From: an archaeon UBA543
Lineage (GTDB): Archaea > Undinarchaeota > Undinarchaeia > Undinarchaeales > UBA543
DNA length: 64,000 nt
Assembly: GCA_002502135.1 (NCBI GenBank)
Contig: DAPM01000017.1
Span: 5,548 to 69,547 of the forward strand
Direction of reading: 5' to 3'
Of this stretch, positions 11,910 to 61,276 are shown piece by piece. Numbering within the stretch: the stretch's first letter is position 1; every line of letters starts with the position of its first letter. Made by a program: the position numbers and the translations under genes. The notes beneath the pieces were generated by a model. It had not been told where the DNA came from. It was given only the letters and a program-made list of their open reading frames with translations, and did not search any database.

Positions 11910-12260
11910 ATGGATTTCAACTACAAACAAGCAATCTTAATCAGAAAAGACCTTAACCTGAGCAAAGGCAAGGCAATAGCACAGGGAGCGCACGCCAGTG
12001 TTGAAGCATTTGTTAAATCAAAAGAAATTGGAAACACCTGGCTGCAAGAAGGAATGAAGAAAGTCGTGCTCGAAGTTGCAGATGAAGCAGAATTAATCAA
12101 ATATTTCCAAACTGCTAAAGATCTTGGCCTGCCAGCTTGCTTAATCACAGATGCTGGCCACACTGAAATTCCTGCTGGAAAAAAAACCGCAGTTGGTATT
12201 GGCCCTGCTCTTGATGCTGATATTGACAAAGTTACTGGGGAGTTGAAACTTTTAGGGTGA
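11910..12260 (+). CDS. pth2: Peptidyl-tRNA hydrolase, archaeal Pth2
   Basis: 116 aa. KAIAQGAHASVEAF...TDAGHTEIPAGKKTAVGIGP matches the Pth2 family. Confidence 0.85.
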   Translation: MDFNYKQAILIRKDLNLSKGKAIAQGAHASVEAFVKSKEIGNTWLQEGMKKVVLEVADEAELIKYFQTAKDLGLPACLITDAGHTEIPAGKKTAVGIGPALDADIDKVTGELKLLG

Positions 12261-13402
12261 TGGATTTCTCAACATTCGGAATAACACAATTTGCCACTAA
12301 GGCAGACGGATTTTCAGGAAAATTCAAGCAAGAGCCTGGCGACTTTGTTGTTCAAGAAATTCTAGTTGACGGAACAGTTGCCAGTTTGGAACCTGATAAT
12401 TCTGCTAAACCCTTGGATTCTGAATACACTCAATTCACTTTAGTAAAACGGGACTGGAATCAGGACACAATCCTAAAGAAAATCGCAATGTATTGCGGTG
12501 TTTCCAGAAAACGAGTTTCCTACGCAGGAACAAAAGACAAATACGCTCTAACAGCTCAGAGAATTTCAGCTTGGAAAATTTCTCCAGAACAACTTGCAAA
12601 TATCAGAATCAAAGATGTTGAAATCGGTGACTTCACTGCATTTGACAAGCGTTTAGAGCTTGGAGATCTCTGGGGAAACAGATTCACAATTAAAATCACA
12701 GATGTGGCCGATCCAAAATCTGCAGTCAAATCCTGCAATGAAACTTTCAAACAACTTGAAAAACTTGGTGGACTTCCAAACTTCTTTGGTCAGCAAAGAT
12801 TCGGAATGCGCAGAAACAATCACATTATCGGAAAGCACCTGCTCCAAGGAAAAATGGAAGATGCTTGCAAGGGCTTCCTTATTGAAACAACCGATGATGA
12901 AAAACCTGAAGGAAAAGCAGCAAGAGAAGACCTTGCAAAGAACTGGGGCACTTTCAAACAGTTCCCGAAATTTATGAGATTTGAAAACGCAGTAATAAAT
13001 CAGTTGATCCAGCATCCAAGCGATTTTGTGGGAGCTTTCAAAAGACTAAGCAAGAATATTTACAAAATTTTCACTCACGCTTACCAATCCAACTTATTTA
13101 ACATTCTTTTATCTGAGCGACTGGAGAAACAAGATTCTCTGAGTGGTGAGGGAAACTTAGTAGGATATGATTCTGAGCTAACTGAGCAAGAGTTGAGCTT
13201 GCTAAAGAAAGATGAGCTGACACAAAAAGGTCTGCGAATCAAACAGTTTCCAGAAGCAAGCGTCAGTGGGGGCAAGCGAAAATGGCTGGCAGAAATGAAG
13301 AACTTCTCCTGCGAAGCTGGCGACAATTCTGTAACAATCAAGTTCGATTTGCAAAAAGGAGCATATGCAACAGTCCTTCTCAGAGAATTATTGAAATCAT
13401 AA
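12257..13402 (+). CDS. truD: tRNA pseudouridine(13) synthase TruD/Pus7
   Basis: 381 aa. Motifs GTKDKYA and NFFGQQRFG are TruD signature motifs. Confidence 0.8.
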   Translation: MMDFSTFGITQFATKADGFSGKFKQEPGDFVVQEILVDGTVASLEPDNSAKPLDSEYTQFTLVKRDWNQDTILKKIAMYCGVSRKRVSYAGTKDKYALTAQRISAWKISPEQLANIRIKDVEIGDFTAFDKRLELGDLWGNRFTIKITDVADPKSAVKSCNETFKQLEKLGGLPNFFGQQRFGMRRNNHIIGKHLLQGKMEDACKGFLIETTDDEKPEGKAAREDLAKNWGTFKQFPKFMRFENAVINQLIQHPSDFVGAFKRLSKNIYKIFTHAYQSNLFNILLSERLEKQDSLSGEGNLVGYDSELTEQELSLLKKDELTQKGLRIKQFPEASVSGGKRKWLAEMKNFSCEAGDNSVTIKFDLQKGAYATVLLRELLKS

Positions 13403-13437: not shown

Positions 13438-14199
13438 ATGATAAACCCGGTCAGATCTATTTATAGAAGAGTGGTCTCAATTCCACATATCTTATTTCCA
13501 AAAAAGCTAAACACGATGCCTTATTTCCAGAGAATGAAACTCTTCTACAAACTCGAGCGAGTTCACTGGAACATCAGGTGCTATCACAAAAGGAGTCACA
13601 TAGTACCGTTTATCAAATGGCTTATTGAAAATCCTGAGATCGGGGGCTCTATTATTGAAGCAGGATGCGGACAGGGCGGAAGTACAACTAAACTCAGCAT
13701 TATCGCCAAAATGCTTAACAAGAAACTAATAGTTTTTGACAGTTTCCAAGGTCTTCCACATGGAAGCGACGAAGTTAAAAACATTCTTGGAAATCCTGCA
13801 GAGAAATTCAAAACTGGAAATTTCGCAACTCCACTTAAACAAGTCAAAGAAAACATTTCAAAATACGGAGAACTTGGCCAGTGCAAATTTGTTGAAGGCT
13901 GGTTCAAGGACACTCTGCCCTCTTTTAACGAAACCATCTGCGCAGCATATATTGATGTTGATCTCCCATCCAGCACAGCAACTTGTATCAAATATCTGTT
14001 CCCACATCTCTCTGAACATGGGCTTTTCTATTCACAAGATGGTGATTACCCTTCTGTTCTCGCAACCTTCTTATCAACAGATATATGGCATGACATCCAA
14101 TATAATGTTCCTAAAATCCGCCATCTTGGAAGCAAATTAAAAATCATCTGGATTGAAAGAACAATTCCAAGCGCTAGGCAAAAGCATAATCTTTATTAA
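13438..14199 (+). CDS. TylF/MycF-like SAM-dependent O-methyltransferase
   Basis: 253 aa. GSIIEAGCGQGGST...FDSFQGLP...GWFKDTLP matches the macrocin-O-methyltransferase family layout. It sits immediately upstream of the aglB pair. Confidence 0.55.
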   Translation: MINPVRSIYRRVVSIPHILFPKKLNTMPYFQRMKLFYKLERVHWNIRCYHKRSHIVPFIKWLIENPEIGGSIIEAGCGQGGSTTKLSIIAKMLNKKLIVFDSFQGLPHGSDEVKNILGNPAEKFKTGNFATPLKQVKENISKYGELGQCKFVEGWFKDTLPSFNETICAAYIDVDLPSSTATCIKYLFPHLSEHGLFYSQDGDYPSVLATFLSTDIWHDIQYNVPKIRHLGSKLKIIWIERTIPSARQKHNLY

Positions 14200-14224
14200 T
14201 ACCTGTTTTCAACCAGTGTGCATG
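14180..14224 (+). promoter_or_regulatory. Putative archaeal TATA promoter for aglB copy 1; member of a duplicated 45-nt upstream sequence
   Basis: AAAAGCATAATCTTTATTAATACCTGTTTTCAACCAGTGTGCATG is near-identical to 16442..16486. The TTTATTAATA box is centred ~27 nt before the ATG, which implies a leaderless mRNA. Confidence 0.5.
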
Positions 14225-16435
14225 AATGAGGGGGGAGAGGATGATTCATCCTTTGATTTTTCAAAGTTAAAGAATCGATTCAAGCGCGACAAAGCGTCTG
14301 GCGACAGCATGGCTCTGGATCTTTCTGGCCCAGCCAAGTGGCTCAAAAACAACAAGAAGTTCCTAATTTACGGGCTTCTGGTTTTGCTTTTATTATTCTC
14401 CGGATGGCTTAGATTTATGCCAGAGGAAAAGTACACTGGAATTTATGAAAATTCACTTTCTGCCATGGATCCTTACTGGCATTACAGACATGCAAACGAC
14501 GTTTATGAGCATGGTTTTGTTGGTGACGAAGAAGTCTGCTATAATGAGGCAGCGAAACTAACAACCAAATATGATGGCTCGTGTCCACCCGGTTCTGAAC
14601 ACGCCTATTGGGATTTCATGCACGATGCCCCTGAAGGAAGTCGTATTGACCAGGAATTCTACCCATACTTTTCTGCATATTCTTACAAGTTTTTCGGTAG
14701 AGCATTTGCACCTAACTTGCTTGTCTGGCACCGCTGGACACCTGCGCTTTTCGGAATACTAGCAGTTCTTGGAATGTTCCTTCTGGCAAAACAATTATTC
14801 GGGCCTTACGCAGGACTTGCTGCAGGTTTCCTCTTTTCACTAGCGCCTTCATTTTTAACAAGAAGTGTTTCTGGATTTGCAGATACTGACGCAGTAATCG
14901 GGTTCTTCACTGTATTCTCGCTTTATTTCTTCATAAAAGCCTGGGATAACAACTCCATATTATATGCAATAATCGGTGGAGTCTGTCTTGGTTTGTTTGG
15001 TGTAGCCTGGCCAGGGTACGAGTTCATGCCACTTCTATTGATGGGCATGGCTGGATTTTTCTTTGTTTACAAAACCGTCCCTAAAATAATTGAAGGTTCC
15101 AGAAATTTCATAAAATTGGTTGTCGATCATTTGAAAGAGTATTGGAAAAAGTATGCAATTCTTGCGCTCTTACTATTGGTTACTCTAACTCTTGTAGGAT
15201 CTATCCGCGGTTTCAAGGAAGTTAATGTGTTTGAAGCAATAACTGCTTCTACAAGATTCAAAGTTGAAGATGTTGTTGACACTTCTGTTGAAGGAGAGGA
15301 CGTACTTGAGGTTTACAAAACCGTTGCTGAGATGAATCCTTCAAATCTCAGAAATATTGTTATTCGTCTTCATTACGCTCTTGTACTTCTTGCTGTTGGT
15401 TTCATAGCCTTACTCCCATTTGGATTATGGAAAAAGGTGAAAGATAATACACACCATATCGCCTTCCTCTTACTTTGGTTCGGTGCTACATTCTACATGT
15501 CTTTCAAGGCAATGAGGTTTATTGGAATGGCAGTATTCCCTGTTTGTATTTTTGCAGGAATCACTATTGCATTCTTGATTTCAAAAATCAAGCTGAAGCG
15601 CCCTGTTATTTCAGTTATATTTGCACTTATCATTTTCCTTTCAATCTTTGCAGTTCCTAATATTGCTATGGTCAAGGGGCAGGAATGGGGTGTATCCTAT
15701 TACGCCAGTGGAAGAGCAACTGCAGATCAAACTGGTCCATCTTTAGGACCTAATTGGTTTGACTTCCTCTACTGGGCCAGAGACTCGACTCCTGAAGGCT
15801 CAATATTCGCATCTTGGTGGGATCCTGGACATGCAATGACAGCTATCGGTGAGCGTCCTGCGGTTGCTGACGGAAGTCAGAACTCCTGGCATATCCACGA
15901 TCTCGCAGTCATCTTCACCACAACTGATGAAAATCTCGCAGTTGAACGGCTCAAAAAATATGATGTGTCTTACTTTTACACAAGTTCTGACCTGATTAAC
16001 AAGTATGGTGCAATCAGTTTCCTGTCTAATGGACAGGGTGAAAACTATCCGTTCCTCAATCTTGCTGAATCCAAGGAAGTTGCTTCAGGAAATGTTTTGA
16101 TATATCCTGTTGCTTCTCAGACAGACATAATCCTTGAATTAAGAGAAGATGGGATGAGTGCAGTTATATCTCAGAGATTCCAGAAACAGACAATAAAACG
16201 GATCTTCTACACTCAGAACGATCAGAGCTATGTTTCAGAATCAGATGACCCAGATGCATTCGAAGCAATGCTGTATCTCCAGCCTAATTTCCAGCAGGCC
16301 ATATTCCTTCCAATTCATCTGGAAAACAATATGCTCACCCAGCTTCACTTCTTCAATGGTCAGAATCTTGAGCACTTTGAGTATGTTGGCAATTACGGTG
16401 ATGAAATAAAAGTTTTCAAAGTCATTTATGACTAG
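14222..16435 (+). CDS. aglB: Oligosaccharyltransferase AglB/STT3 family, paralog 1
   Basis: Start placed at MNEGGEDD (leaderless, after the TATA). N-terminal polytopic membrane domain carries a DPYWHYR first-loop motif (cf. STT3 DPWFNYR), a T-x-x-E-like KTVAEM and a C-terminal WWDPGH (variant of the WWDYG motif). Confidence 0.75.
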   Translation: MNEGGEDDSSFDFSKLKNRFKRDKASGDSMALDLSGPAKWLKNNKKFLIYGLLVLLLLFSGWLRFMPEEKYTGIYENSLSAMDPYWHYRHANDVYEHGFVGDEEVCYNEAAKLTTKYDGSCPPGSEHAYWDFMHDAPEGSRIDQEFYPYFSAYSYKFFGRAFAPNLLVWHRWTPALFGILAVLGMFLLAKQLFGPYAGLAAGFLFSLAPSFLTRSVSGFADTDAVIGFFTVFSLYFFIKAWDNNSILYAIIGGVCLGLFGVAWPGYEFMPLLLMGMAGFFFVYKTVPKIIEGSRNFIKLVVDHLKEYWKKYAILALLLLVTLTLVGSIRGFKEVNVFEAITASTRFKVEDVVDTSVEGEDVLEVYKTVAEMNPSNLRNIVIRLHYALVLLAVGFIALLPFGLWKKVKDNTHHIAFLLLWFGATFYMSFKAMRFIGMAVFPVCIFAGITIAFLISKIKLKRPVISVIFALIIFLSIFAVPNIAMVKGQEWGVSYYASGRATADQTGPSLGPNWFDFLYWARDSTPEGSIFASWWDPGHAMTAIGERPAVADGSQNSWHIHDLAVIFTTTDENLAVERLKKYDVSYFYTSSDLINKYGAISFLSNGQGENYPFLNLAESKEVASGNVLIYPVASQTDIILELREDGMSAVISQRFQKQTIKRIFYTQNDQSYVSESDDPDAFEAMLYLQPNFQQAIFLPIHLENNMLTQLHFFNGQNLEHFEYVGNYGDEIKVFKVIYD

Positions 16436-16441
16436 AGCAGA

Positions 16442-16486
16442 AAAAGCATAATCTTTATTAATACCAGTTTTCAACCAATGTCTATG
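16442..16486 (+). promoter_or_regulatory. Putative TATA promoter for aglB copy 2 (duplicate of 14180..14224)
   Basis: AAAAGCATAATCTTTATTAATACCAGTTTTCAACCAATGTCTATG has the same TATA box and spacing. Confidence 0.5.
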
Positions 16487-18697
16487 GCAGATGGGGAAGA
16501 AGGTAAATCCTTTAAGTTTTCAGATATAGAGAGCCGGCTAAATGAAGGTCGCGATATCTCTAAAAGTATTACCTGGGTCAAGGAGAACAAAAAGACTGTA
16601 ATCTATCTTGTCTTGTTTCTGATATTACTATTTTCAACGGTTATCCGATTTGCTCCTGAACAACAGTATACAGGAATTTATGAGGACACTCTTGCTCTTG
16701 GGGACTCTTACTGGCATTACAGACACGCAAAAAACGTTTATGAGCATGGTTTTGTGGGTGATGAAGAGCTTTGCTATAACGAGCAAACCAAAGATACCCA
16801 GGCCTATGACGGTTCGTGCCCTGATGGATATGAACCAGCGTATTTTGACACACTGCACGATGCTCCATTTGGGGTTAAAATTGAGCAGGAATTCTATCCA
16901 TATTTCTCAGCTTATTCCTATAAATATTTCGGTAGAGCATTTGCACCTAACTTGCTTGTCTGGCACCGCTGGACACCTGCATTTTTCGGAATCCTATCAG
17001 TTCTTGGAATGTTCCTTCTCGTTAAACAATTATTCGGACCTTATGCCGGACTTGCTGCAGGTTTAATTTTTTCCCTTGCTCCCTATACTATAATCAAAAC
17101 TATTTCAGGAACAGCTGATACTGAAGCAGTTGTGACATTTTTCACTATATTTACTTTCTACTTTTTTGTAAAGGCGTGGAATCTTTCATCATTTAAATAT
17201 GCTGTAGCCGGAGGCATCACTCTCGGATTGTTCGGAATTGCCTGGGCATCCTATAGGTTCGCTCCTGTCCTCATGCTGGCTGTACTATTCTTCTTCTTTT
17301 TGCAGAAAGTTTATCCTAAATTCAAACAAGGGCGCAGGGATATCTTCAAATTAATAAAAGAGCACTTGACAGAGTACTGGAAAAAATATACTACATTCTT
17401 AATAATACTCGCCATTGGACTTCCTATTATCGGTTTTGTCCGCGGCTTCATTCATATTAATTTCTTCTATGCAATTACAACAGCTTTAAAATTAAAAACA
17501 ACAACAGCTGCGACAACAGTTGGAGGAGAAGTCATCCGTGATGTTTACTCTACAATCACTGAAATGAAGCAAATCGGACTTCATACTATTGTAACAAGGC
17601 TTCACCTTGTTCCAGCACTTCTCTGCGCATCTTTCTTTGCTCTTCTTCCATTTGGCTTGTGGAAAAAATACAAGGATAAAGCTCCCCAGGTTCTTTTTAT
17701 TTTAGTCTGGTTTGCAGCTGCAGTTTTTATGACTTTTAAGGCAACCCGATTTATTATAATGCTGATTCTTCCAGTTTCAGTACTTGCTGGAACAGCTGTT
17801 GGATTCGTGATCTCAAAGATGAGGCAAAAGAAGCTTGTTTTTTCGGTTGTAATTGCTGTTATCCTTCTCATAGTGCTTTTTGTTCTTCCAAACATTCCTG
17901 CTCAGCAAGGCCAGCCAGAACTTCCACAATCTGGTGTTTCACGAAATCGTTCATATTTCTCAACTGGAATTGAATTTACATCTCTTCCAAAACCTCTTTT
18001 AAACCAAAATTGGATAAATTTCTACAAATGGGCGCGTGAACAAACTCCAGAAGATGCAATCTTTGCTTCATGGTGGGATCATGGCCACCTAACTACCGCT
18101 GTTGCTGAACGGGCTATTGTAGCAGACGGAAGTCAAAACAATCTTCATATTCACGATCTTGCCGTTATTCTTACTACTAATGACGAAGATCTAGCTGTAG
18201 AGCGATTGAAAAAATACAATGTTTCATACTTCTTCACAAGTTCAGATATGATAAACAAGTATGGACTGATACTATATCTTGCTGATAAACAGGGCAGTGA
18301 GTATACATTAATTGTTAACCCTGAAATCCAAACCACCCCTCTCGGGCCGGTTTTAGTTTATACTATGGATGAAGCAAATAAAATCACTTTGAAACAGGAA
18401 GAAGATGAACGAATATCTGCTACATTAAGACAGGGGTATCAAACAACACCAATCAATCGAACTCTTTATTACACTAATAATTCTACGCCACTCATTTCTG
18501 AAAGCGAGGCAGAGGATGCGCTCGACATGCTGATTTATGTTCTTCCTCAATGGTTTGGAATCTTTCTTTTAAACCCTGAGATTGAAAAATCAATGCTCAC
18601 TCAACTCCACTTTTTCAATGCAGATTATCTTGAGCATTTCGAATTTATTGAAAGTTTTGGCGGAGAAATCAAGGTCTTTAAGGTAAATTATGACTAA
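16484..18697 (+). CDS. aglB: Oligosaccharyltransferase AglB/STT3 family, paralog 2
   Basis: Track start is 16478; the ATG homologous to copy 1 is 16484 (MADGEEG). Motifs: DSYWHYR, STITEM, WWDHGH. A stretch around 16929..16982 is nucleotide-identical to 14697..14750. Confidence 0.75.
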   Translation: MADGEEGKSFKFSDIESRLNEGRDISKSITWVKENKKTVIYLVLFLILLFSTVIRFAPEQQYTGIYEDTLALGDSYWHYRHAKNVYEHGFVGDEELCYNEQTKDTQAYDGSCPDGYEPAYFDTLHDAPFGVKIEQEFYPYFSAYSYKYFGRAFAPNLLVWHRWTPAFFGILSVLGMFLLVKQLFGPYAGLAAGLIFSLAPYTIIKTISGTADTEAVVTFFTIFTFYFFVKAWNLSSFKYAVAGGITLGLFGIAWASYRFAPVLMLAVLFFFFLQKVYPKFKQGRRDIFKLIKEHLTEYWKKYTTFLIILAIGLPIIGFVRGFIHINFFYAITTALKLKTTTAATTVGGEVIRDVYSTITEMKQIGLHTIVTRLHLVPALLCASFFALLPFGLWKKYKDKAPQVLFILVWFAAAVFMTFKATRFIIMLILPVSVLAGTAVGFVISKMRQKKLVFSVVIAVILLIVLFVLPNIPAQQGQPELPQSGVSRNRSYFSTGIEFTSLPKPLLNQNWINFYKWAREQTPEDAIFASWWDHGHLTTAVAERAIVADGSQNNLHIHDLAVILTTNDEDLAVERLKKYNVSYFFTSSDMINKYGLILYLADKQGSEYTLIVNPEIQTTPLGPVLVYTMDEANKITLKQEEDERISATLRQGYQTTPINRTLYYTNNSTPLISESEAEDALDMLIYVLPQWFGIFLLNPEIEKSMLTQLHFFNADYLEHFEFIESFGGEIKVFKVNYD

Positions 18698-19697: not shown

Positions 19698-22013
19698 ATG
19701 CAGATTGTAGTACTAGCTGGCGGATTGGCAACACGTATGAGACCGGTTACAGAGACCATTCCAAAAGCAATGATTCAGGTCAATGGCAAGCCTTTTCTGG
19801 AGCACCAGATTAAACTATTCCGAAGGAACGGAGTTACTGATATTATCTTGTGTGTTGGATACAGGGCTCAGCAGATAAAGGATTATTTCGGGGACGGCTC
19901 TAAATTCGATGTCAGAATCCGCTACAGTGACGAAGGAGACAACCTAAAAGGCACAGCAGGCGCTCTAAAGCAAGCAGAAGCGCTTCTGGATGACGAATTC
20001 CTTGTGATTTATGGAGATTCTTTTCTCACAACCAATTTTCAGGATGTAATTGATCATTTTAACAAGAATGACAAGTCAGCTCTTTGCACTGTTTACAAAA
20101 ACGATTTAGAATATCACAAAAACAATATGCAGGTTGCAGACGGGATGATTGTAAAGTACGACAAAACTGCTCAGACACCTGAAATGAAGCATGTTGACTA
20201 CGGACTTTCTATTCTCAGAAAATCAATATTGGATTCAATTCATCCTGATCGTGTAATCCAACTTGACGAAATATTCCAAACTCTAATCGCTAACAAGGGG
20301 TTACTTGCTTACGAAGTTTCTGACAGGTTTTATGAAATTGGTGAACCTGAAGGACTTAAACAGTTTGAGGATTATTTGAAGAGTAAAGACGAAACTACAA
20401 AAGCTTCAGGATGTGCTGGGTGTCCAAAATCAAGAATGTGCGGTACTGGGGTTCAGACTTCTTTTGAGCACAAGCGAGTTGAAACAATTGTTGGGCTTCC
20501 TGATAGTGTTGGAAAAGGGAAAAGTATCAAGAAGGTTCTGTTAATCTTTCCACACAGGATAAGTTTTTCCGGATACAAAGAGGATTTATCTCCTCCAATG
20601 GGCATGGCTTGTCTTGGTGCAGTTCTGGAAAACGCAGGATATGAAGTTAAAATTATTGATGCTGCAGCAGAGGATTTCAACCATTCTGAAAAAATTAATG
20701 ACAACATGGTACGGCTCGGAATAAGTATGGAAGACTTGAAACAGAGAATTACAGACTATCATCCTGATTTTGTTGGGGTGTCTTGTCTTTTCACAGCTCA
20801 GATCAAGACTGTTCTTGAAATCTGCAAGTCAATTAAGGAAGTTGATCCAAGTGTTCCTGTTGCAGTTGGTGGTTCTCATCCATCCGCTTTGCCTGAGCAG
20901 TCACTCAAATCACAATTCTTGGATTATGTAATCATTGGAGAAGGTGAATACACTTGCCGAGAGCTTCTCAACAAGCTGAAAACCAATGAGTCAGTTTCTG
21001 ATATTGACGGTTTTGCCTGGAAAGAAGACGGCAAGATTCACGTAAATCCTAAAACAAAATTTATAGAAGACATTAATGAGCTTCCTGAGCCAGCAAGGCA
21101 CTTACTGCCTATGAAAACATATTTTGACATTAATCTACCTCAGTGCGGAACCTCTCTCAAGAGACCGAACACTACAATTGCAACTTCAAGGGGGTGCACA
21201 GGCAACTGTGTGTTCTGTGCAACTACAAAACTCTGGGGAAGACGGTTCAGGCCGTTTGCAGTTGAGCGAGTTCTGGATGAAATGGAGACACTAATCAAGG
21301 ATTACGGAATTAAGGAGTTCCAATTTATTGACGACAACCTCACACTCAACAAAGAACGTGCAATGAAGATTTTCCAGGGAATGATTGACCGAAAATTCAA
21401 TATTGTCTGGAATACTCCGCAAGGTATAGCAATCTGGGCACTGGATAATGAGCTTCTGGACAAAATGAAAGAATCTGGGTGCTACGAAATCACAATTGCT
21501 GTTGAGAGCGGAGACCAGGATGTTCTTACTAACATAATCCACAAGCCAACAAACCTTTCAAAAGTTGAGGGAATTGTAAAACATGCAAAGAAACTCGGCT
21601 TGATTGTGAAAGGATACTTTGTTGTAGGATTCCCGGGTGAAAAGAAATGGCAGATGCAGAAAACTTTTGATATTGCAAAAGACTTGAAGTTTGATGCAGC
21701 TGGAATTTTCATTGCAACACCACTTCCAGGCACACAATTATACAAACAATGCAAGGAAAAAGGGTATCTTCGCCCTGGTTTTGATTTTGAACGTGTGAAT
21801 TATGGAGTTGGAAATATTATTACTCCAGATTTCAAGCCTGAAGAAATCGAGCAGATGGTTTCAGAAAATATTATCAAAATCAACATGGCTCTCTTGTACA
21901 GAAATCCTTGGAAGTTTGCAAAGAAGTATTTCCAGCTTGTTAAGCGAAATCCAAGAGTTATGTTTGATTATATGGGCTTCTTATGGAAGAAAGCAAGGAG
22001 GAAGAAATCATAA
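19698..22013 (+). CDS. Fusion protein: sugar-1-phosphate nucleotidyltransferase (N-terminal) plus cobalamin-binding radical SAM enzyme (C-terminal)
   Basis: 771 aa. The N-terminus MQIVVLAGGLATRMRPVTETIPKAMIQVNGKPFLEHQI is a G-x-G-x-R NTP-transferase fold (HddC/RmlA-like). The middle region is a B12-binding Rossmann (VLLIFPHRISFSGY...VIIGEGEY). Then comes ATSRGCTGNCVFCATT, the CxxxCxxC radical-SAM cluster. Confidence 0.8.
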   Translation: MQIVVLAGGLATRMRPVTETIPKAMIQVNGKPFLEHQIKLFRRNGVTDIILCVGYRAQQIKDYFGDGSKFDVRIRYSDEGDNLKGTAGALKQAEALLDDEFLVIYGDSFLTTNFQDVIDHFNKNDKSALCTVYKNDLEYHKNNMQVADGMIVKYDKTAQTPEMKHVDYGLSILRKSILDSIHPDRVIQLDEIFQTLIANKGLLAYEVSDRFYEIGEPEGLKQFEDYLKSKDETTKASGCAGCPKSRMCGTGVQTSFEHKRVETIVGLPDSVGKGKSIKKVLLIFPHRISFSGYKEDLSPPMGMACLGAVLENAGYEVKIIDAAAEDFNHSEKINDNMVRLGISMEDLKQRITDYHPDFVGVSCLFTAQIKTVLEICKSIKEVDPSVPVAVGGSHPSALPEQSLKSQFLDYVIIGEGEYTCRELLNKLKTNESVSDIDGFAWKEDGKIHVNPKTKFIEDINELPEPARHLLPMKTYFDINLPQCGTSLKRPNTTIATSRGCTGNCVFCATTKLWGRRFRPFAVERVLDEMETLIKDYGIKEFQFIDDNLTLNKERAMKIFQGMIDRKFNIVWNTPQGIAIWALDNELLDKMKESGCYEITIAVESGDQDVLTNIIHKPTNLSKVEGIVKHAKKLGLIVKGYFVVGFPGEKKWQMQKTFDIAKDLKFDAAGIFIATPLPGTQLYKQCKEKGYLRPGFDFERVNYGVGNIITPDFKPEEIEQMVSENIIKINMALLYRNPWKFAKKYFQLVKRNPRVMFDYMGFLWKKARRKKS

Positions 22014-22046: not shown

Positions 22047-23027
22047 ATGATCATAACACAAACCCCACTCAGAATAACACTCGGCGGAGGAGGCACAGAT
22101 TTAGCTTCCTATTACTCAAAACACACAGGATTCCTGATAAGCGCTGCAATCGACAAGTATGTTTACATTAGTTTGCACAAGACTTTTGACAAGGATATTA
22201 CAGCCCACTATTCAAAACATGAGAAAGTTTCAAATGTTGCAGAATTACAGCACCCCATCATCATGGAAGCACTCAAACTCACAGGAATCGAGAGTGGTAT
22301 AGAGGTTTCCAGCATGGCAGACATCCCAGCAGGAACAGGATTAGGTTCTTCCGGATGTTTCACAGTCGGACTTCTGAATGCACTTCACACTTCTAAAAGA
22401 GAAAAATTATCTTCACACGAGCTAGCAGAAGAGGCTTGCAAAATCGAAATTGATCTTCTAAAAGAGCCAATTGGCAAGCAGGATCAGCACGCTTGTGCTA
22501 CAGGGGGCTTGACTGCATTCACTTTTGAGAAAGACGGCACTGTCAAAGCAGAGCCAATGAAAGTTTCCCAGAAAACAATGAATGCACTGGAAGACAATCT
22601 CTTACTTTTCTTTACAAATTACTCCAGAAGTGCTTCAGGTATTCTGAAAGAGCAGGATGACAAGAGCAAACAGGATGAAGATGAAATGATTCAGAACCTG
22701 CACAAAGTCAAAGAGCTTGGTGTTGAGAGCAAGCTTGCACTTGAATCTGGAAATCCTGACAAGCTTGGAGAATTAATGCACATTCACTGGGAGAACAAGA
22801 AAAAACGCTCAGGTTCAATGAGTAATCCTAAAATTGACAAATGGTACAACATTGCAATGGAGAATGGTGCTCTTGGCGGAAAACTGGTTGGCGCTGGCGG
22901 AGGCGGATTCCTGATGTTCTACGCAAATGACAAAGAGAAGCTTCGGGAAGCAATGCGCAAGGAAGGTTTGAGTGAGGTCAGGTTCAGATTCGACTTTGAT
23001 GGTTCTAAAGTATTGGTGAATGTATGA
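22047..23027 (+). CDS. GHMP-family sugar kinase, HddA-like (D-glycero-alpha-D-manno-heptose-7-phosphate kinase-like)
   Basis: 326 aa. MIITQTPLRITLGGGGTDL is the HddA-type N-terminus; the GHMP motif PAGTGLGSSG is present. Confidence 0.7.
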   Translation: MIITQTPLRITLGGGGTDLASYYSKHTGFLISAAIDKYVYISLHKTFDKDITAHYSKHEKVSNVAELQHPIIMEALKLTGIESGIEVSSMADIPAGTGLGSSGCFTVGLLNALHTSKREKLSSHELAEEACKIEIDLLKEPIGKQDQHACATGGLTAFTFEKDGTVKAEPMKVSQKTMNALEDNLLLFFTNYSRSASGILKEQDDKSKQDEDEMIQNLHKVKELGVESKLALESGNPDKLGELMHIHWENKKKRSGSMSNPKIDKWYNIAMENGALGGKLVGAGGGGFLMFYANDKEKLREAMRKEGLSEVRFRFDFDGSKVLVNV

Positions 23028-23788
23028 AGAGAGCAGTTGTAACTGGTGGAAGCGGTGGAATTGGAAAAATTATAGCAAAAGCACTGCACGATAACGGTTT
23101 TGAAATCATTCTTGTTGCTAGAAATGAAGAGAATTTGAAAAAAGCTGCACCAGAAATTGGAACTAATGTTAAAACATTCCCTTGCGATGTTACAAGCTAC
23201 ACTCATGTTGAATCTCTTTTCGCAAATTTTGATAAAATTGATGTTCTAGTAAATTCTGCAGGCATTCTTGGGCCAACTGAAACCCTTGCAGATTCTGACA
23301 TTGCTAATTGGAAGCGAGTACTTGAAGTTAATTTAATAGGAACAGTAAATTGCTGCAAAGCTGCTGGCCCCATTCTTGAAAAGTCAGAGCACGGGAAAAT
23401 TGTGAATATTGCAGGCGGTGGTGCTGCATATGCAAGACCACTTCATTCTGCTTATGCAACTTCAAAAGCAGGAGTAGTCAGGTTCACCGAAGAATTATCA
23501 TTGGAACTGAAGAACACAGATGTTAATGTTATTGCTCCTGGAGCGCACAACACAAAACTCTGGGAAGATGAGAAGGTTGATGAACCGCCAGAGCAGTGGG
23601 CAAACCCAGAAGATGTTGCAAAACTTGTGCTCTATCTTGCTTCTGAAAAATCTAATGGAATTACTGGCAAATTCATACACATCAAGGATGATTACGAAAG
23701 TTTCACTCCAGAGCTTTCAAAATCTGACAAATGCGCATTGAGGCGCGTTGACGACATATTGCTGGAGAAATTGAAAAATGAATTATAA
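23024..23788 (+). CDS. Short-chain dehydrogenase/reductase (SDR)
   Basis: 254 aa. Motifs TGGSGGIGK and YATSKAG (Y-x3-K). Confidence 0.8.
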   Translation: MKRAVVTGGSGGIGKIIAKALHDNGFEIILVARNEENLKKAAPEIGTNVKTFPCDVTSYTHVESLFANFDKIDVLVNSAGILGPTETLADSDIANWKRVLEVNLIGTVNCCKAAGPILEKSEHGKIVNIAGGGAAYARPLHSAYATSKAGVVRFTEELSLELKNTDVNVIAPGAHNTKLWEDEKVDEPPEQWANPEDVAKLVLYLASEKSNGITGKFIHIKDDYESFTPELSKSDKCALRRVDDILLEKLKNEL

Positions 23789-23816
23789 AGTTGAGGAGGT
23801 TGGAAAATACTAATAT

Positions 23817-23889
23817 CGGGGCACTGTGGAACCGCGGGGCCGGAGCGCCGAACGGCGCCCCTGCGCACCCGCGCCCCGGATCCACTGGA
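23817..23889. repeat. GC-rich structured intergenic element (copy A)
   Basis: A ~73-nt stretch of very high GC in a ~40% GC context. The core 23852..23879 (ACGGCGCCCCTGCGCACCCGCGCCCCGG) is the exact reverse complement of 60499..60526. It contains internal hairpins GCGCC-GAAC-GGCGC and GCGC-ACCC-GCGC. Confidence 0.6.
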
Positions 23890-23894
23890 CAAAA

Positions 23895-24860
23895 ATGAAA
23901 ACAGGAATTATTGGTTGCGGTCTAATCGGCTGGCGCAGAGCTAGTTTTCTAGGCGAGGATGAGCTTGTAATGTGCGCAGATGTCGATGAGGAGCGCGCCA
24001 AAAAGCTTGCAGAGGAATTTGATTGCGAATATTCTACTGATTCTACAAAAGTAACAAGTGATCCTCGAATTGAAGCTGTAATTATTTCGACTACAAACCA
24101 ATTCTTAGCAGAAATCGCTACCGATGCTGTCCGAAATAACAAACACTGCTTAATTGAAAAACCAGGAGCAAGAACTCTTGTTGAATATGAGCAGTTGATG
24201 AATGTTGCTAAAGAGCAAGGCGTTAAAGTGAAAATCGGTTACAATCACAGATTCCACCCATCCTTCTTGAAAGCTAGGGAGATTGTTGATTCTGGAGAAA
24301 TTGGTGAAGTAATGTATGTCAGGGGAAGGTATGGTCACGGCGGACGGCTTGGGTACGATAAAGAGTGGCGTGCAGATCCGCAAAAGTCTGGTGGTGGTGA
24401 GATGCTAGATCAGGGAACTCACTTAATTGACTTGGCTCGATGGTTCTGTGGCGAATTCACAGATGTTAAAGGCCATGTTGGCACTTTCTTCTGGGACATG
24501 CCAGTTGAGGATAATGGTTTTGCGCTCCTAAAAACAGATTCAGGCAAAGTTGCATGGCTGACTGCAAGCTGTACTCAGTGGAAGAATTTGTTCTGCTTTG
24601 AGATTCACTGCAAAACTGGATTGCTTGTAATTGACGGTCTTGGCAAGAGTTATGGCAAAGAAACACTCACTTTCCACAAAATGAAGCCTGAAATGGGTAT
24701 TCCTGATACTGAAACCTTCACTTGGGATGAAGATGATTCCTGGAAAAAGGAGTGGGTTGAGTTTAGAAGTGCGATTTCAGAGAATCGGGAGCCAATGAGC
24801 TCAATCTCAGATGCTTATGGAAACTTTAAGGTTGTTTCTGACCTCTACAAAACCCACTGA
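23895..24860 (+). CDS. Gfo/Idh/MocA-family NAD(P)-dependent oxidoreductase
   Basis: Track ORF starts at 23826, but its first 23 aa translate the GC-rich element. The real start is MKTGIIGCGLIGWRRA (Rossmann), followed by a C-terminal Gfo/Idh/MocA alpha/beta domain. Confidence 0.8.
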   Translation: MKTGIIGCGLIGWRRASFLGEDELVMCADVDEERAKKLAEEFDCEYSTDSTKVTSDPRIEAVIISTTNQFLAEIATDAVRNNKHCLIEKPGARTLVEYEQLMNVAKEQGVKVKIGYNHRFHPSFLKAREIVDSGEIGEVMYVRGRYGHGGRLGYDKEWRADPQKSGGGEMLDQGTHLIDLARWFCGEFTDVKGHVGTFFWDMPVEDNGFALLKTDSGKVAWLTASCTQWKNLFCFEIHCKTGLLVIDGLGKSYGKETLTFHKMKPEMGIPDTETFTWDEDDSWKKEWVEFRSAISENREPMSSISDAYGNFKVVSDLYKTH

Positions 24861-57679: not shown

Positions 57680-58615
57680 TTATTTCTTCCTCTGAACCTT
57701 TTCAATACTGTAAGTATCACGTGGATCGTGTCTGGTTCTCACAAGCATTTCTGCAAGCACTCCTGTAAAGAACAACTGCACTCCCATAATCACTAAAAGA
57801 AGTGTAAGTATGAGCATTGGCCTGCTTGCTATTGATTCACCATAAACGAATTTTTCTATAAGCAGGTATGCGCCTGAAAGACCACCAAGGAACAGAACCC
57901 CTGCTCCAAGTGTACCAAGAATATGAACTGGCCTTTCGCTGTATCTAAGCAAGAATTTCAGAGTCAGAAGATCAAGCAATCCTTTCATCAGTCTTCCAAC
58001 ACCGTATTTTGATTTTCCAAAGCGTCTTGGCCTGTGATTAGTAACTGCTTCTGAAACTTTGTATCCTTTGCTTGCAATCAGTGCAGGAATGTACCTGTGG
58101 TTTTCCCCAAAAAGCTTCAAACCTTCAACTGCTTCACGTCTGTATGCTCTTAGGGTGCAACCGGAATCATGAATTTTCAATCCTGTAAGCTTCCTGTTTA
58201 AGAAATTTGATAATTTTGAAGGCAGTTTCTTCACAACATTGTCTTTTCTTGCCATTCTCCATCCGCAGACTACATCGTGTCCTGTTTCCAGTTTGTGAAT
58301 CAGCTTTGGAATGTCTGCAGGATCGTTCTGCAAATCAGCATCAAGAGTTACAAGTATTTTCCCTGTTGCGTGGTTGAAACCTGCCATAAGTGCCGGAGTC
58401 TGCCCGAAATTCTTCCTAAGTTTTACAATAACAACGTGAGGATCTTTTCCAGCAATTTCTGTAAGTGCGCGATGAGTTGTGTCTGTAGAGCCGTCGTCAA
58501 TAAAAATCAGCTCGTACTTTCTCTTCATCCTCTGCATAACGTCTGTTAACTCGTCGTATAGCTGCTTCACACTTTCTTCTTCATTGTAAGTTGGAAGAAC
58601 AATTGAGATATCCAT
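57680..58615 (-). CDS. Dolichyl-phosphate sugar synthase-like GT2 (DPM1/AglD/ArnC type) with C-terminal TM helices
   Basis: 311 aa. MDISIVLPTYNEEESV...FIDDGSTD...DADLQ, followed by two C-terminal TM segments. Confidence 0.8.
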   Translation of the reverse strand: MDISIVLPTYNEEESVKQLYDELTDVMQRMKRKYELIFIDDGSTDTTHRALTEIAGKDPHVVIVKLRKNFGQTPALMAGFNHATGKILVTLDADLQNDPADIPKLIHKLETGHDVVCGWRMARKDNVVKKLPSKLSNFLNRKLTGLKIHDSGCTLRAYRREAVEGLKLFGENHRYIPALIASKGYKVSEAVTNHRPRRFGKSKYGVGRLMKGLLDLLTLKFLLRYSERPVHILGTLGAGVLFLGGLSGAYLLIEKFVYGESIASRPMLILTLLLVIMGVQLFFTGVLAEMLVRTRHDPRDTYSIEKVQRKK

Positions 58616-58654: not shown

Positions 58655-58690
58655 TTACTGTTCTGGGTGGATTAGGGGCACGGGGGCTTA
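58655..58690 (+). repeat. G-rich TTAGGGG-repeat element in a divergent promoter region
   Basis: GGATTAGGGGCACGGGGGCTTAGGGGCTTGGAG has three G4-5 runs plus GG. It shares GGGGCAC(C)GGGG with the 60492 element and TTAGG units with the 53943 element. Confidence 0.5.
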
Positions 58691-58751
58691 GGGGCTTGGA
58701 GTTGTTCTTTTTTTCTCAAAACTTAAATACACTTCCAGCAAGTTTTATTGT

Positions 58752-60093: not shown

Positions 60094-60468
60094 TTATTTC
60101 TTTTTCTTAACAGGTTTCTTTTTCTCAATCTCATCCATCCGAATAGCAACTTTCCTAACTAAATCAGTAATTTGCCTCTGTGTCTCCTGGTTTCTAATAT
60201 AAACATGGAAGATCAATGCAAATGCTCCAAGCAATCCAAGAAGCATCAGTGCATCCAAACCACGTCCAATATCTGTGAATAAGCTGAGGAAATTAGCAAA
60301 AGTCAGAGGGAACAGTGCAACTATTAACAGCAACACAGAAACAGAGCTCCAAATAACAATATCTTTTCTCTTGAACCTGCCTTTTTTGTATAAGACTCTT
60401 GTCTCAAAAGCAATCAGGAGCGCTATTGCGATCCCGACCAGTTGTATTCCAAGTATTTGTAGTTCCAT
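60094..60468 (-). CDS. Small membrane protein (DUF2304-like, GT2-associated)
   Basis: The track ORF starts 10 codons further upstream; the probable start is MELQILGIQ. Two or three TM segments plus a basic C-terminal tail. Confidence 0.4.
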   Translation of the reverse strand: MELQILGIQLVGIAIALLIAFETRVLYKKGRFKRKDIVIWSSVSVLLLIVALFPLTFANFLSLFTDIGRGLDALMLLGLLGAFALIFHVYIRNQETQRQITDLVRKVAIRMDEIEKKKPVKKKK

Positions 60469-60491
60469 TTTTTGTTTGTCCTCCTTATGAA

Positions 60492-60569
60492 GGGGCACCG
60501 GGGCGCGGGTGCGCAGGGGCGCCGTCTTGAGTTTTCGGTGCCCCGGCTACCGGTGCACCGGATCCACGG
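60492..60569. repeat. GC-rich structured intergenic element (copy B, inverted relative to copy A)
   Basis: The core 60499..60526 is the reverse complement of 23852..23879. GGGGCACCG (60492-60500) can pair with CGGTGCCCC (60537-60545). A CCGGTGCACCGG palindrome is also present. Confidence 0.6.
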
Positions 60570-60571
60570 AG

Positions 60572-61276
60572 TTACCTTTTCACCCCTATTGTCCGGAGCA
60601 ACATACTCCACACAATTCTAAGGCCGTTCTTGAACGGCATTTGATTAGTACCTCGCTGAACACTGCGGTCATCATAAATAGCTTTTATTGGTATTTCAAG
60701 TATTCGCAGGTTGTGATGTCCAAGTTGGTGGATTATTTCTGAGCTAACTTCGTATTTATCACACAAAATTATCAGTTTTTCAGCAGCTTCTCGGTTAAAT
60801 GCCCGCAAACCGCTTTGTGAATCAGTGATTGTGGTATCTGAAAGAATGTTTGTAACTCCTGTTAGAAGAGTGTTTCCAAAGCGTTTGATTCTTGGCATTA
60901 ACTCAACATCCTTTTTGCTCATAAAACGGGAACCAATAACTGCATCTGCTTTGTTGTTCTGGATTGGCTTGATTAATCTTTCAACATCTTTTCCTAAGTG
61001 CTGAAGATCTGCATCAAATGTAACTACAATATCTACATTACTCCTGATTGCTGCCTGAATTCCAGTTGAAAGCGCTGCACCAAGTCCGCGGTTGATAACA
61101 TGAGTGAGAACATGAACGCCTTGCGCTTCTGCAAATTCTTTAGTCCTGTCTTTAGATCCGTCATTTACTACAAAAATATCATTTTTCGGGAACTGTCTTT
61201 TCACATCCTTGAGAGTCTGTACTATTGACTCTTCTTCATTGTATGCAGGAATTACAAAGACTAAATTCTGTTTCAT
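60572..61276 (-). CDS. Family-2 glycosyltransferase (soluble Dol-P-sugar synthase-like)
   Basis: 234 aa. LVFVIPAYNEEESI...VNDGSKD...FDADLQ. Confidence 0.75.
   Translation of the reverse strand: MKQNLVFVIPAYNEEESIVQTLKDVKRQFPKNDIFVVNDGSKDRTKEFAEAQGVHVLTHVINRGLGAALSTGIQAAIRSNVDIVVTFDADLQHLGKDVERLIKPIQNNKADAVIGSRFMSKKDVELMPRIKRFGNTLLTGVTNILSDTTITDSQSGLRAFNREAAEKLIILCDKYEVSSEIIHQLGHHNLRILEIPIKAIYDDRSVQRGTNQMPFKNGLRIVWSMLLRTIGVKR

Follow-up and report, generated by a model that had tools for sequence, protein, structure and literature searches.

The window analysed here (a stretch of 64 kb from contig DAPM01000017.1 of the archaeon UBA543, phylum Undinarchaeota) carries two short and extremely GC-rich intergenic elements, copies A and B, together with a decayed third one, copy C. 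The interpretation that we favor, with a probability of roughly three in four, is that they form a family of short GC-rich elements with the structure of imperfect palindromes, which is distributed among marine Undinarchaeota-like archaea. Comparison with relatives demonstrates a multicopy family, the members of which are lineage-specific insertions at different sites where selection tolerates them. A first-pass annotation of the window had considered that A and B might be a structured small RNA, a repeat resembling MITEs (miniature transposable elements with inverted repeats) or a shared operator; it is the repeat that is sustained, by empty sites in relatives, by additional copies in both orientations and by recognizable terminal inverted repeats (TIRs).

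Two GC Islands with a Common Core

The overall GC content of the window is 39.45%, and 40-nt segments with at least 72% GC occur in two islands only (table 1). These islands contain the 28-mer ACGGCGCCCCTGCGCACCCGCGCCCCGG, which has one exact match per strand, at 23852-23879 (+) and 60498-60525 (-), precisely as the first-pass annotation had reported. The search for further copies on both strands that it had proposed, once run on the window, gave no other match with up to three mismatches (none is expected from 100 shuffles), and blastn-short with both elements as queries found no additional close copies in the window. The similarity between A and B exceeds the 28-mer when gaps are allowed, following the order GGGGCAC, variable segment, 28-mer. 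Other details of the earlier description were also found again: GGGGCAC is present at 23818 and 60492, a further common segment, CCGGATCCAC, at 23876 and 60558, the palindromes GCGCCGAACGGCGC and CCGGTGCACCGG at 23845 and 60550, respectively, and the 9-bp stem of copy B is formed by GGGGCACCG (60492) and CGGTGCCCC (60536). Both elements are intergenic, A occupying the SDR/GFO spacer and B the GT2/DUF2304 spacer. Their description as an inverted pair needs to be qualified: they do lie on opposite strands, but this is incidental, because the C-rich strand of the 28-mer is the mRNA-sense strand in both A and B, which thus have equal orientation relative to their own operon.

Copy C, which is absent from the first-pass annotation, was revealed by a profile search combined with comparative alignment, alongside a scan for G runs. 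It matches the nhmmer profile of the family weakly (58667-58695, E = 0.53) and lies between two TATA-like boxes in the spacer of the divergent genes for GT2 (57680-58615, minus strand) and PGM (58752, plus strand), with AGAACA direct repeats on both sides.

Empty Sites in Relatives

Homologous loci of related organisms were retrieved via the proteins flanking the elements, which are 70-92% identical to those of the window; the nearest named homologues, with 74-84% identity, are labeled Candidatus Undinarchaeales or Undinarchaeota, a phylum of DPANN archaea. For locus B, the relatives are L017 (DUF2304 protein 84% identical), L021-L024 (74%) and L025 (70%), which have in common with the window the gene order Alba...DUF7343-DUF354-GT4-GT2-DUF2304-PGM. 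In these relatives, the stop of GT2 and the start of DUF2304 either overlap as TAATG or are separated by a gap of five A, with no GC island (alignment A2, comparing the window with L017, L021 and L025). Nucleotide alignment by blastn breaks at 60476/60577 of the window, while the sequence of L017 is contiguous, with flanks of approximately 78% identity. For locus A, the relatives are L026 (GFO protein 92% identical), L027-L029 (80%) and L030-L032 (81%); here SDR stop and GFO start share an ATGA, whereas the window has about 110-125 nt of extra DNA, the blastn break at 23776/23904 facing a gap of 8 nt in L026, with flanks that are 88.5-90.2% identical. The insert at this locus also lengthens the C-terminus of SDR (..KNEL*) by three residues. 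The segment of copy C is missing from L017 and L021 (alignment A8), and L025 has at the same spot a different, unrelated-looking insert with CCGGGGCACCGG.

On the basis of these alignments, A and B are lineage-specific insertions, absent from the syntenic loci of close relatives, which is the outcome of the presence/absence comparison that the first-pass annotation had recommended. Gene order is colinear on both sides of A and B with respect to relatives lacking the elements, and no synteny break, island junction or inversion end-point was seen at either locus in comparison with these relatives. Since the flanks are contiguous and the gene order is unchanged in relatives, the elements constitute neither the boundary of an island nor the end-point of an inversion. 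Moreover, independent marine assemblies (from Tara Oceans and elsewhere) include 16 contigs that encode the flanking proteins with 100% identity, and across these 16 metagenome contigs of the window's population the elements themselves are identical except for one single-nucleotide polymorphism. Their presence in 16 independent assemblies excludes that they are assembly artefacts.

Family Members at Other Loci

The first-pass annotation had held that a lack of further copies would speak against its proposal; homologues have been found at other sites, in both orientations. Altogether, the family comprises nine insertions at seven distinct sites in at least four lineages, each insertion being lineage-specific and three of the nine lying in coding sequence. 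The sites are of three kinds only: the exact junction of stop and start in gene pairs that used to overlap, a promoter spacer and, with the frame kept, loops of proteins.

In L027 (a 368-kb contig with 42% GC), one of the relatives without copy A, GC islands occur at three other places. The intergenic one is located at TAL|GT2 and is missing from both the window and L030, while the genes for PTH2 and TruD carry in-frame inserts (table 1) at positions where the PTH2 (11910-12260) and TruD (12257-13402) genes of the window have short AT-rich loops. Further members came from sequence scans: a degenerate 20-mer retrieved from metagenomes at least 118 chance matches in high-GC contigs and, among the matches listed, one true relative, L052, and a degenerate 25-mer retrieved from GTDB genomes 41 chance matches in high-GC bacteria plus one true relative, L191. 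L052 and L191 carry the same sequence, and L191 belongs to the same Undinarchaeota metagenome-assembled genome as L017.

The L191 element (K191) lies in frame within a RIO/Bud32-like kinase, between the segments HGELSxADKHIIVR and YFIDFEKG. Kinase homologues P0136-P0139 and P0141 have in this position a short AT-rich loop (TIGKNVKP and similar) and no insert; GC-rich or derived inserts are present in L191, P0133 (L194-196) and P0134, and other inserts in P0135 and P0140. Among the latter, the insert of P0135/L203 (50% GC, C/A-rich) was discarded, as it has no confident relation to the family. L194-196 are Tara contigs with 40% GC, possibly from the window's own species, and their copy (K194) is in opposite orientation to K191. 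The two kinase copies differ in length by 9 nt, keeping the reading frame, and encode different peptides depending upon orientation (SGAPQGRSTEKLTQRPGAPAPRCPR in K191 and SGAPGHRGTERRSGSTVSRCPR in K194; the corresponding stretch of P0133 is VSGAPGHRGTER). In the AlphaFold (AF2) model of P0133, which has a mean pLDDT of 86 and a pTM of 0.83, pLDDT falls below 50 at residues 150-161, and the insert is predicted to form an unstructured loop between two beta strands (residues 144-165). A bulge-helix-bulge intron or translational bypassing of the coding copies was rejected, given that the frame is kept and length differences are multiples of 3; simple read-through is favored on the same grounds.

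A neighbor-joining tree of the kinases computed without the loop shows insert-bearing and insert-free proteins interleaved, with P0133 grouping with the insert-free P0137-39 (bootstrap 0.99). Judging from these sequences, such an interleaving suggests recurrent invasion, inversion in situ or exchange of alleles. The kinase loop and the PGM/GT2 spacer are each occupied in lineages that are not sisters.

In more distant relatives, short clusters that are GC-rich or contain G runs occur in the spacers TBP|MCM and DUF424|Rpb6 (L197:3445-3492 and L203:427-470). They resemble the family profile marginally and may represent further or older families.

Architecture and Folding of the Elements

The copies at unrelated loci are homologous. 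Copy A aligns over its full length with the reverse complement of K194 (63/79 identical positions, 80%), B with K191 (48/56, 86%), A with L027-3 (29/34) and L027-1 with L027-2 (29/32), while in no case did any of 500 shuffles score as high; the hidden Markov model of the family recovers the aligned copies with E values from 4e-19 to 5e-11. The elements measure approximately 50-100 nt, have 70-90% GC in host genomes of 35-43% GC and contain no open reading frame (ORF) of their own. Their common TIRs are of the form CGTGKATCCGGGGC... / ...GCCCCGGATMCACG, every copy bearing at its end CGTGKATCCGG(G/T)GC, the complement GCCCCGGATMCACG of this motif or both, and their arms consist of runs of GGGGCNCC on the left and GGNGCCCC on the right, around GAAC or a longer loop. 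The minimal version is the 52-nt L027-3, mostly made of its two terminal repeats (CCGTGAATCCG...CGGATACACGG, matching at 10/12 positions); the TIR of copy A is GTGGAACCG...CGGATCCAC (8/9). The end CGTGKATCCGG(G/T)GC is shared by B, K194 and C, and B is devoid of a matching right end, having GGGGCACCG/CGGTGCCCC in its place. Two forms can be distinguished: the A-type (A and K194), with the short GAAC loop, and the B-type (B and K191), with the long loop GAAAAnTnAAnAC. The number of arm units varies, with three GGGGCACC in K194 and three units similar to GGGGCTCC in both L027-1 and L027-2.

In the full-length alignment, the central tetraloop is inverted relative to the arms, reading GAAC in A (window 23852-23858) and GTTC in K194, as would be expected of template switching in a quasi-palindrome. 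The outer ends are common to K191 and K194, whose interiors align better when one is inverted (score 27 vs. 17, equaled by 0 vs. 24 of 1000 shuffles); this is only suggestive of an interior inversion, the arms being quasi-palindromic. The G-rich strands of B (60492-60525, plus) and K191 (L191:4221-4249, plus) contain canonical G-quadruplex motifs, for example GGGGCACCGGGGCGCGGGTGCGCAGGGG, and the complementary strand could form an i-motif.

The hairpins anticipated by the first-pass annotation are indeed predicted to be stable, from -40 to -45 kcal/mol for the RNA of A and B, but the gain in folding energy over dinucleotide shuffles is modest (z-scores of -1.9 to -2.8) and the two folds differ. 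For DNA, the z-score is -0.3 for A and -2.5 for B, with a range of -0.3 to -2.7 over the elements. Among the kinase copies, the conserved stem GGRGCRCC/GGCGCYCC shows mismatches and no compensatory changes.

Table 1. Coordinates of the GC-rich elements, their parts and adjacent genes. Positions refer to the window unless a contig is given.
Feature	Position	Strand	Remarks
GC island A	23814-23894		Peak 88% GC
Extra DNA block at locus A	23777..23903	+	Versus closest insert-free relative L026 (alignment A3)
Degenerate direct duplicate of GFO 5' end	23767..23796	+	Partner at 23891-23920
SDR gene	23024-23788	+	5' of copy A
Copy A	23817..23889	+	GC-rich element, 81% GC
Copy A, degenerate left inverted repeat GTGGAACCG	23826-23834	+	After GGGGCAC
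Copy A, hairpin GCGCC-GAAC-GGCGC	23845-23858	+	
Copy A, right terminal repeat CCCCGGATCCACTGG	23874-23888	+	3' of the 28-mer (23852-23879)
GFO/IDH/MocA gene	ATG at 23895	+	3' of copy A
Copy C	58657..58709	-	Decayed half-element, ~52 nt
Copy C, core GGGTGGATTAGGGGCACGGGGGCTTAGGGGCTTGGAG	58665-58701 (plus-strand numbering)		
GC island B	60478-60547		Peak 82% GC
DUF2304 gene	ATG at 60468	-	Downstream neighbor of copy B
Copy B	60475..60571	-	97-nt insertion, from the TAA stop of GT2 (60572-60574) to AAAAAATG of DUF2304
Copy B, left terminal repeat CTCCGTGGATCCGG	60558-60571 (plus-strand numbering)	-	First part on the minus strand
Copy B, palindrome CCGGTGCACCGG	60550-60561	-	After the left terminal repeat
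Copy B, stem arm GGGGCACCG	60536-60544 (plus-strand numbering)	-	Followed by long loop GAAAACTCAAGAC, then the 28-mer (60498-60525)
Copy B, stem arm CGGTGCCCC	60492-60500 (plus-strand numbering)	-	3' of the 28-mer
Copy B, end TTCATAAGGAGGACAAAC	60480-60486 (AAGGAGG, plus-strand numbering)	-	Holds Shine-Dalgarno-like AAGGAGG
GT2 gene	60572-61276	-	Upstream neighbor of copy B
PTH2 in-frame insert	L027:1187-1236		...KVKGRGGSGAPGRRSEADE..., insert GRGGSGAPGRRSEA; protein 11 residues longer than in the window
TruD in-frame insert	L027:1592-1640		...EVGGSGAPGLRGA..., insert GGSGAPGLRGA; loop replaced
K191	L191:4212-4302 (= L052:87-187)		B-type kinase copy
K194	L194:6447-6520		A-type kinase copy, opposite orientation

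Changes at the Target Sites

The sequence just upstream of copy A resembles the 5' end of the GFO gene: positions 23767-23796 match the first 30 nt of GFO at 24/30 positions (reached by 6/2000 shuffles; another alignment gives 17/20), and a perfect 9-mer, AAAAATGAA, flanks the element on both sides (23772-23780 and 23890-23898). This duplicate possibly represents a long target duplication produced by the insertion. At B, no significant flank duplication was detected, the situation being ambiguous through the A run. Candidate target duplications are (G/A)TGAC, of about 5 bp, at L027-3 and AGAACA, of about 6 bp, at C, while the coding-site copies have replaced 20-28 nt of native sequence. Several target sites have A-tracts resembling G(G)AAAAATG (alignments A2, A3 and A8, and the kinase sequences).

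Effects on Neighboring Genes and Annotation

All six frames of copy A are free of stop codons, and in the other copies a frame contains one at most. ORFs thus run through the islands by accident, yielding the PCAPAPR-containing pseudo-ORFs that the first-pass annotation had already recognized as spurious. Public gene calls for DUF2304 (P0002/P0003, 134-139 residues) start inside element B (60469-60498), and the 344-residue ORF of the window beginning with GTG (23826-24860) is GFO lengthened through element A; these extensions are annotation artefacts of stop-free GC islands. Possible genuine side effects in the window, deduced from the sequence, are the loss of translational coupling at both junctions, the three additional residues of SDR and the new AAGGAGG of copy B, placed 11 nt upstream of the DUF2304 ATG. 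At 23781-23788, the AT-rich part of insert A contains TTATAAAG, which is similar to the TATA box of archaea and is situated upstream of the GFO ATG, at a distance of about 107 nt; were this used, the GC element would become the 5' leader of a new transcript.

The remainder of the window is chromosomal DNA, with genes for glycolysis, transketolase, PTH2, TruD and two STT3/AglB proteins followed by a long block for surface glycans, in which glycosyltransferases are numerous. The interval from TruD to the conserved STT3 (16478-18697) holds a TylF-like methyltransferase and the second STT3/AglB (13438-16435); the syntenic locus of L027 has neither, but has a PhzF gene between transketolase and PTH2. 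The product of 19698-22013, 771 residues in length, joins a nucleotidyltransferase to a B12-binding radical-SAM domain; it is retained in L027 and L001, upstream of the operon GHMP kinase-SDR-GFO-SIS-HAD. Between A and B, the glycan toolkit is unusually rich for a small archaeal genome (37019-38790, 44208-45830 and 45827-48888), including NeuB with a CMP-sugar cytidylyltransferase (sialic/legionaminic type), for phosphonate, a fusion protein of PEP mutase and nucleotidyltransferase, and a GT9 heptosyltransferase accompanied by an ADP-heptose-like pathway (PfkB kinase, SIS and a cytidylyltransferase-like protein).

How the Elements May Have Spread

In evolutionary terms, these results raise a question: How would a sequence that encodes nothing reach such disparate sites? 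We propose that the elements are selfish DNA, which would be copied from one element to a new site by a mechanism operating at the DNA level. One option is mobilization in trans by an unseen transposase; the other, perhaps more likely in view of the variable target changes and the mosaic structure of the copies, is templated repair mediated by hairpins or microhomology, or else gene conversion. Templated repair or gene conversion would account no less well than classical transposition for the target pattern, for the mosaic copies and for the fact that two sites were occupied repeatedly, in lineages that are not sisters. Scarcity of A and T leaves almost no stop codons, which would aid survival in coding DNA, and the window copies would be passively transcribed inside two operons for glycan biosynthesis. 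Such passive transcription, combined with the presence of copies in both orientations and inside ORFs, argues against a strand-specific RNA role. For the 28-nt identity of A and B, the best explanation is then a recent event of copying or gene conversion from element to element and not co-regulation.

Several observations weigh against this interpretation. The target changes are inconsistent (about 9-30 bp at A, 5 bp at L027-3 and 6 bp at C, plus replacements) and do not fit a single classical transposase; no transposase Pfam match was found among the window proteins or in the gene tables of approximately 250 kb of related loci. Folding energy and self-complementarity exceed those of shuffled sequences weakly, and no polymorphism of empty and filled sites was seen within the window's own population (16 contigs). 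Three copies fall within the 64 kb of the window, three to four within roughly 42 kb from the L027/L197 lineage and none within roughly 40 kb from the L021/L200 lineage; these counts refer to loci rather than to a complete genome. Family motifs and TIRs gave in IMG/VR chance matches only, outside any GC-island context and with no transposase linked to the motif, and hence nothing that would point to a parent among viruses or plasmids. The exact 28-mer is absent from GTDB species genomes and JGI metagenome contigs, as is a 22-mer from IMG/VR; evidently, the source population is not in these collections.

A bolder version of the proposal, which we consider unlikely though worth stating, is that the family is an archaeal counterpart of mitochondrial GC clusters and spreads without a dedicated transposase, by templated repair at hairpins or cruciforms or by biased conversion ("homing") into A-tracts. 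It would fit with the reoccupation of the kinase loop and the PGM/GT2 spacer, with the apparently inverted interior of K191/K194 and with the inverted loop of A/K194.

Alternative Explanations

The alternative that deserves most attention, even if it appears quite improbable, is that the elements are functional cis-acting RNAs in polycistronic mRNAs, which would stabilize or process the upstream message or else uncouple and retune the translation of the downstream gene. Both window copies are indeed sense-oriented between cistrons of glycan operons, their predicted hairpins are strong (see above), B brings a Shine-Dalgarno-like sequence close to the DUF2304 start and the copies are identical over 16 contigs. 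Yet the last point may reflect a young clonal population, the same operons are without elements in every relative examined, and A and B fold differently with modest z-scores, while other family members are reversed or inside ORFs and there is no Rfam family for them. Function may perhaps have been exapted after insertion, and a secondary role of this kind may reside in an mRNA hairpin, a G-quadruplex or the new Shine-Dalgarno sequence of copy B. Independent genes for small noncoding RNAs are far less credible. In AT-rich archaea, GC islands often signal structural RNAs, and those discussed here are the only such islands in the window; however, Rfam gave no match at the gathering score for the whole window and, at E <= 10 for both loci, only a noise match to U6 (E = 1.1). 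The elements have no promoter-like or terminator-like context of their own, are not conserved at orthologous positions in relatives, include in-frame coding and reversed copies with A and B folding differently, and belong to a marine mesophile, for which GC enrichment is unneeded for RNA stability. The small-RNA reading of the first-pass annotation is not supported. H/ACA or C/D small RNAs were dismissed on similar grounds (no Rfam support and no conservation of the elements), as were integron attC sites, for lack of the RYYYAAC/GTTRRRY core, and CRISPR, for lack of an array.

It is equally hard to believe that the 28-mer is a shared protein-binding site (for an operator, nucleoid or recombination protein) or that the two copies are att-like ends of a 36.6-kb glycosylation island, which as inverted repeats could serve to invert the segment or to co-regulate it. 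Inverted identical 28-mers do bracket a variable set of genes for surface glycans, with pathways for heptose, phosphonate and sialic acid, and the G-rich strand of B has its canonical quadruplex motif, but gene order and orientation are unchanged with respect to element-free relatives, a single orientation occurs in all assemblies seen so far and homologues reside within the coding sequence of kinase, PTH2 and TruD. The shared operator envisaged by the first-pass annotation finds no support: the same operons of relatives are without the sequence, and the elements lie between genes that were formerly translationally coupled, not at promoters. Nor does local GC-rich "filler", generated independently at each site by slippage or expansion of octamers of the GGGGCNCC type or by GC-biased repair, have much to recommend it: this would account for the tandem octamer-like units of variable number in K194, L027-1 and L027-2 and for the replacement of native sequence in coding sites, and is accordingly a little less implausible than an operator or small-RNA genes, but not for an exact 28-mer common to A and B at unrelated loci, nor for 80-86% identity across 56-79 nt between copies of unrelated loci, asymmetric terminal repeats included. 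Independent local expansion cannot produce such homology between copies; slippage probably modifies the copies only after insertion.

Significance and Comparison with Known Systems

Undinarchaeota are DPANN archaea with small genomes, regarded as streamlined, and are probably dependent on a host. Should the selfish family that we propose be real, even such streamlined genomes would carry active junk DNA, which splits translationally coupled genes and lengthens the loops of conserved proteins, in parallel with the Rickettsia palindromic elements (RPEs) and the GC clusters of yeast mitochondria but in a third domain or compartment. Were the homing version true, a self-propagating, flip-flopping palindrome would be remodeling essential-protein loops and intercistronic spacers in DPANN genomes. 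From a practical viewpoint, the islands can mislead the calling of start codons and GC-based screens for noncoding RNA, while the elements are usable as strain- or lineage-level markers for uncultured archaea. A full-text search of the literature on MITEs or GC-rich elements, for either Undinarchaeota or DPANN, found nothing relevant.

The elements share with MITEs and with repetitive extragenic palindromes (REPs) and the mosaic elements built from them (BIMEs) the properties of being short, noncoding, multicopy, mainly intergenic, bounded by TIRs and possibly able to form stem-loops in mRNA (PMC10969869). Size (<~500 bp, with no transposase gene), TIRs, and copy number with presence/absence between lineages all agree with the definition of MITEs; unlike these, the candidate target duplications appear to have no fixed length, and neither the window nor the ~250 kb of related loci yielded a cognate insertion sequence, transposase or RAYT. 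The elements also lack the GTAG head of REPs, have a GC content far above that of their genome and, among the few copies seen, are often inserted in frame in coding sequence (3/9). This last feature recalls RPEs, small palindromes of a reduced, host-dependent genome that often interrupt, in frame, housekeeping genes unrelated to one another, at places that protein folding can accommodate (PMC10969869). The archaeal inserts likewise occupy tolerated positions in frame, with PTH2 extended by 11 residues, a TruD loop replaced and a kinase insert with the predicted form of a disordered surface loop. However, RPEs are bacterial, measure about 100-150 bp, are not extreme in GC and encode a conserved peptide, whereas the elements studied here are archaeal, measure 50-100 nt with 70-90% GC and encode peptides (e.g., SGAPQGRS...PGAPAPRCPR) that depend upon frame and orientation.

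The closest analogues would appear to be the GC clusters of yeast mitochondria, which are short GC-rich palindromes of a very AT-rich genome, optional among strains, mostly intergenic but also in frame within var1, and passively transcribed; they evolve fast by "merger and shuffling" and are held to be transposable, their mechanism remaining open (PMC8811140). GC-rich palindromes in an AT-rich genome, optional among close relatives and also present in frame within coding sequence, describe the archaeal elements just as well, and the mosaic of A- and B-types, the variation of the loop and the reoccupied kinase loop provide close parallels. In contrast to the mitochondrial clusters, the archaeal elements reside in a chromosome, are unrelated in sequence and fall outside classes M, G and V; they lack the AG/TAG terminal repeats, having TIRs of about 15 nt (CGTGKATCCGG...) instead, and no evidence points to ribozyme activity, to translational bypassing or to a bias in gene conversion. 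The elements thus belong to none of the sequence families of GC clusters, RPEs or MITEs: they are a new family of a known kind in an unexpected host.

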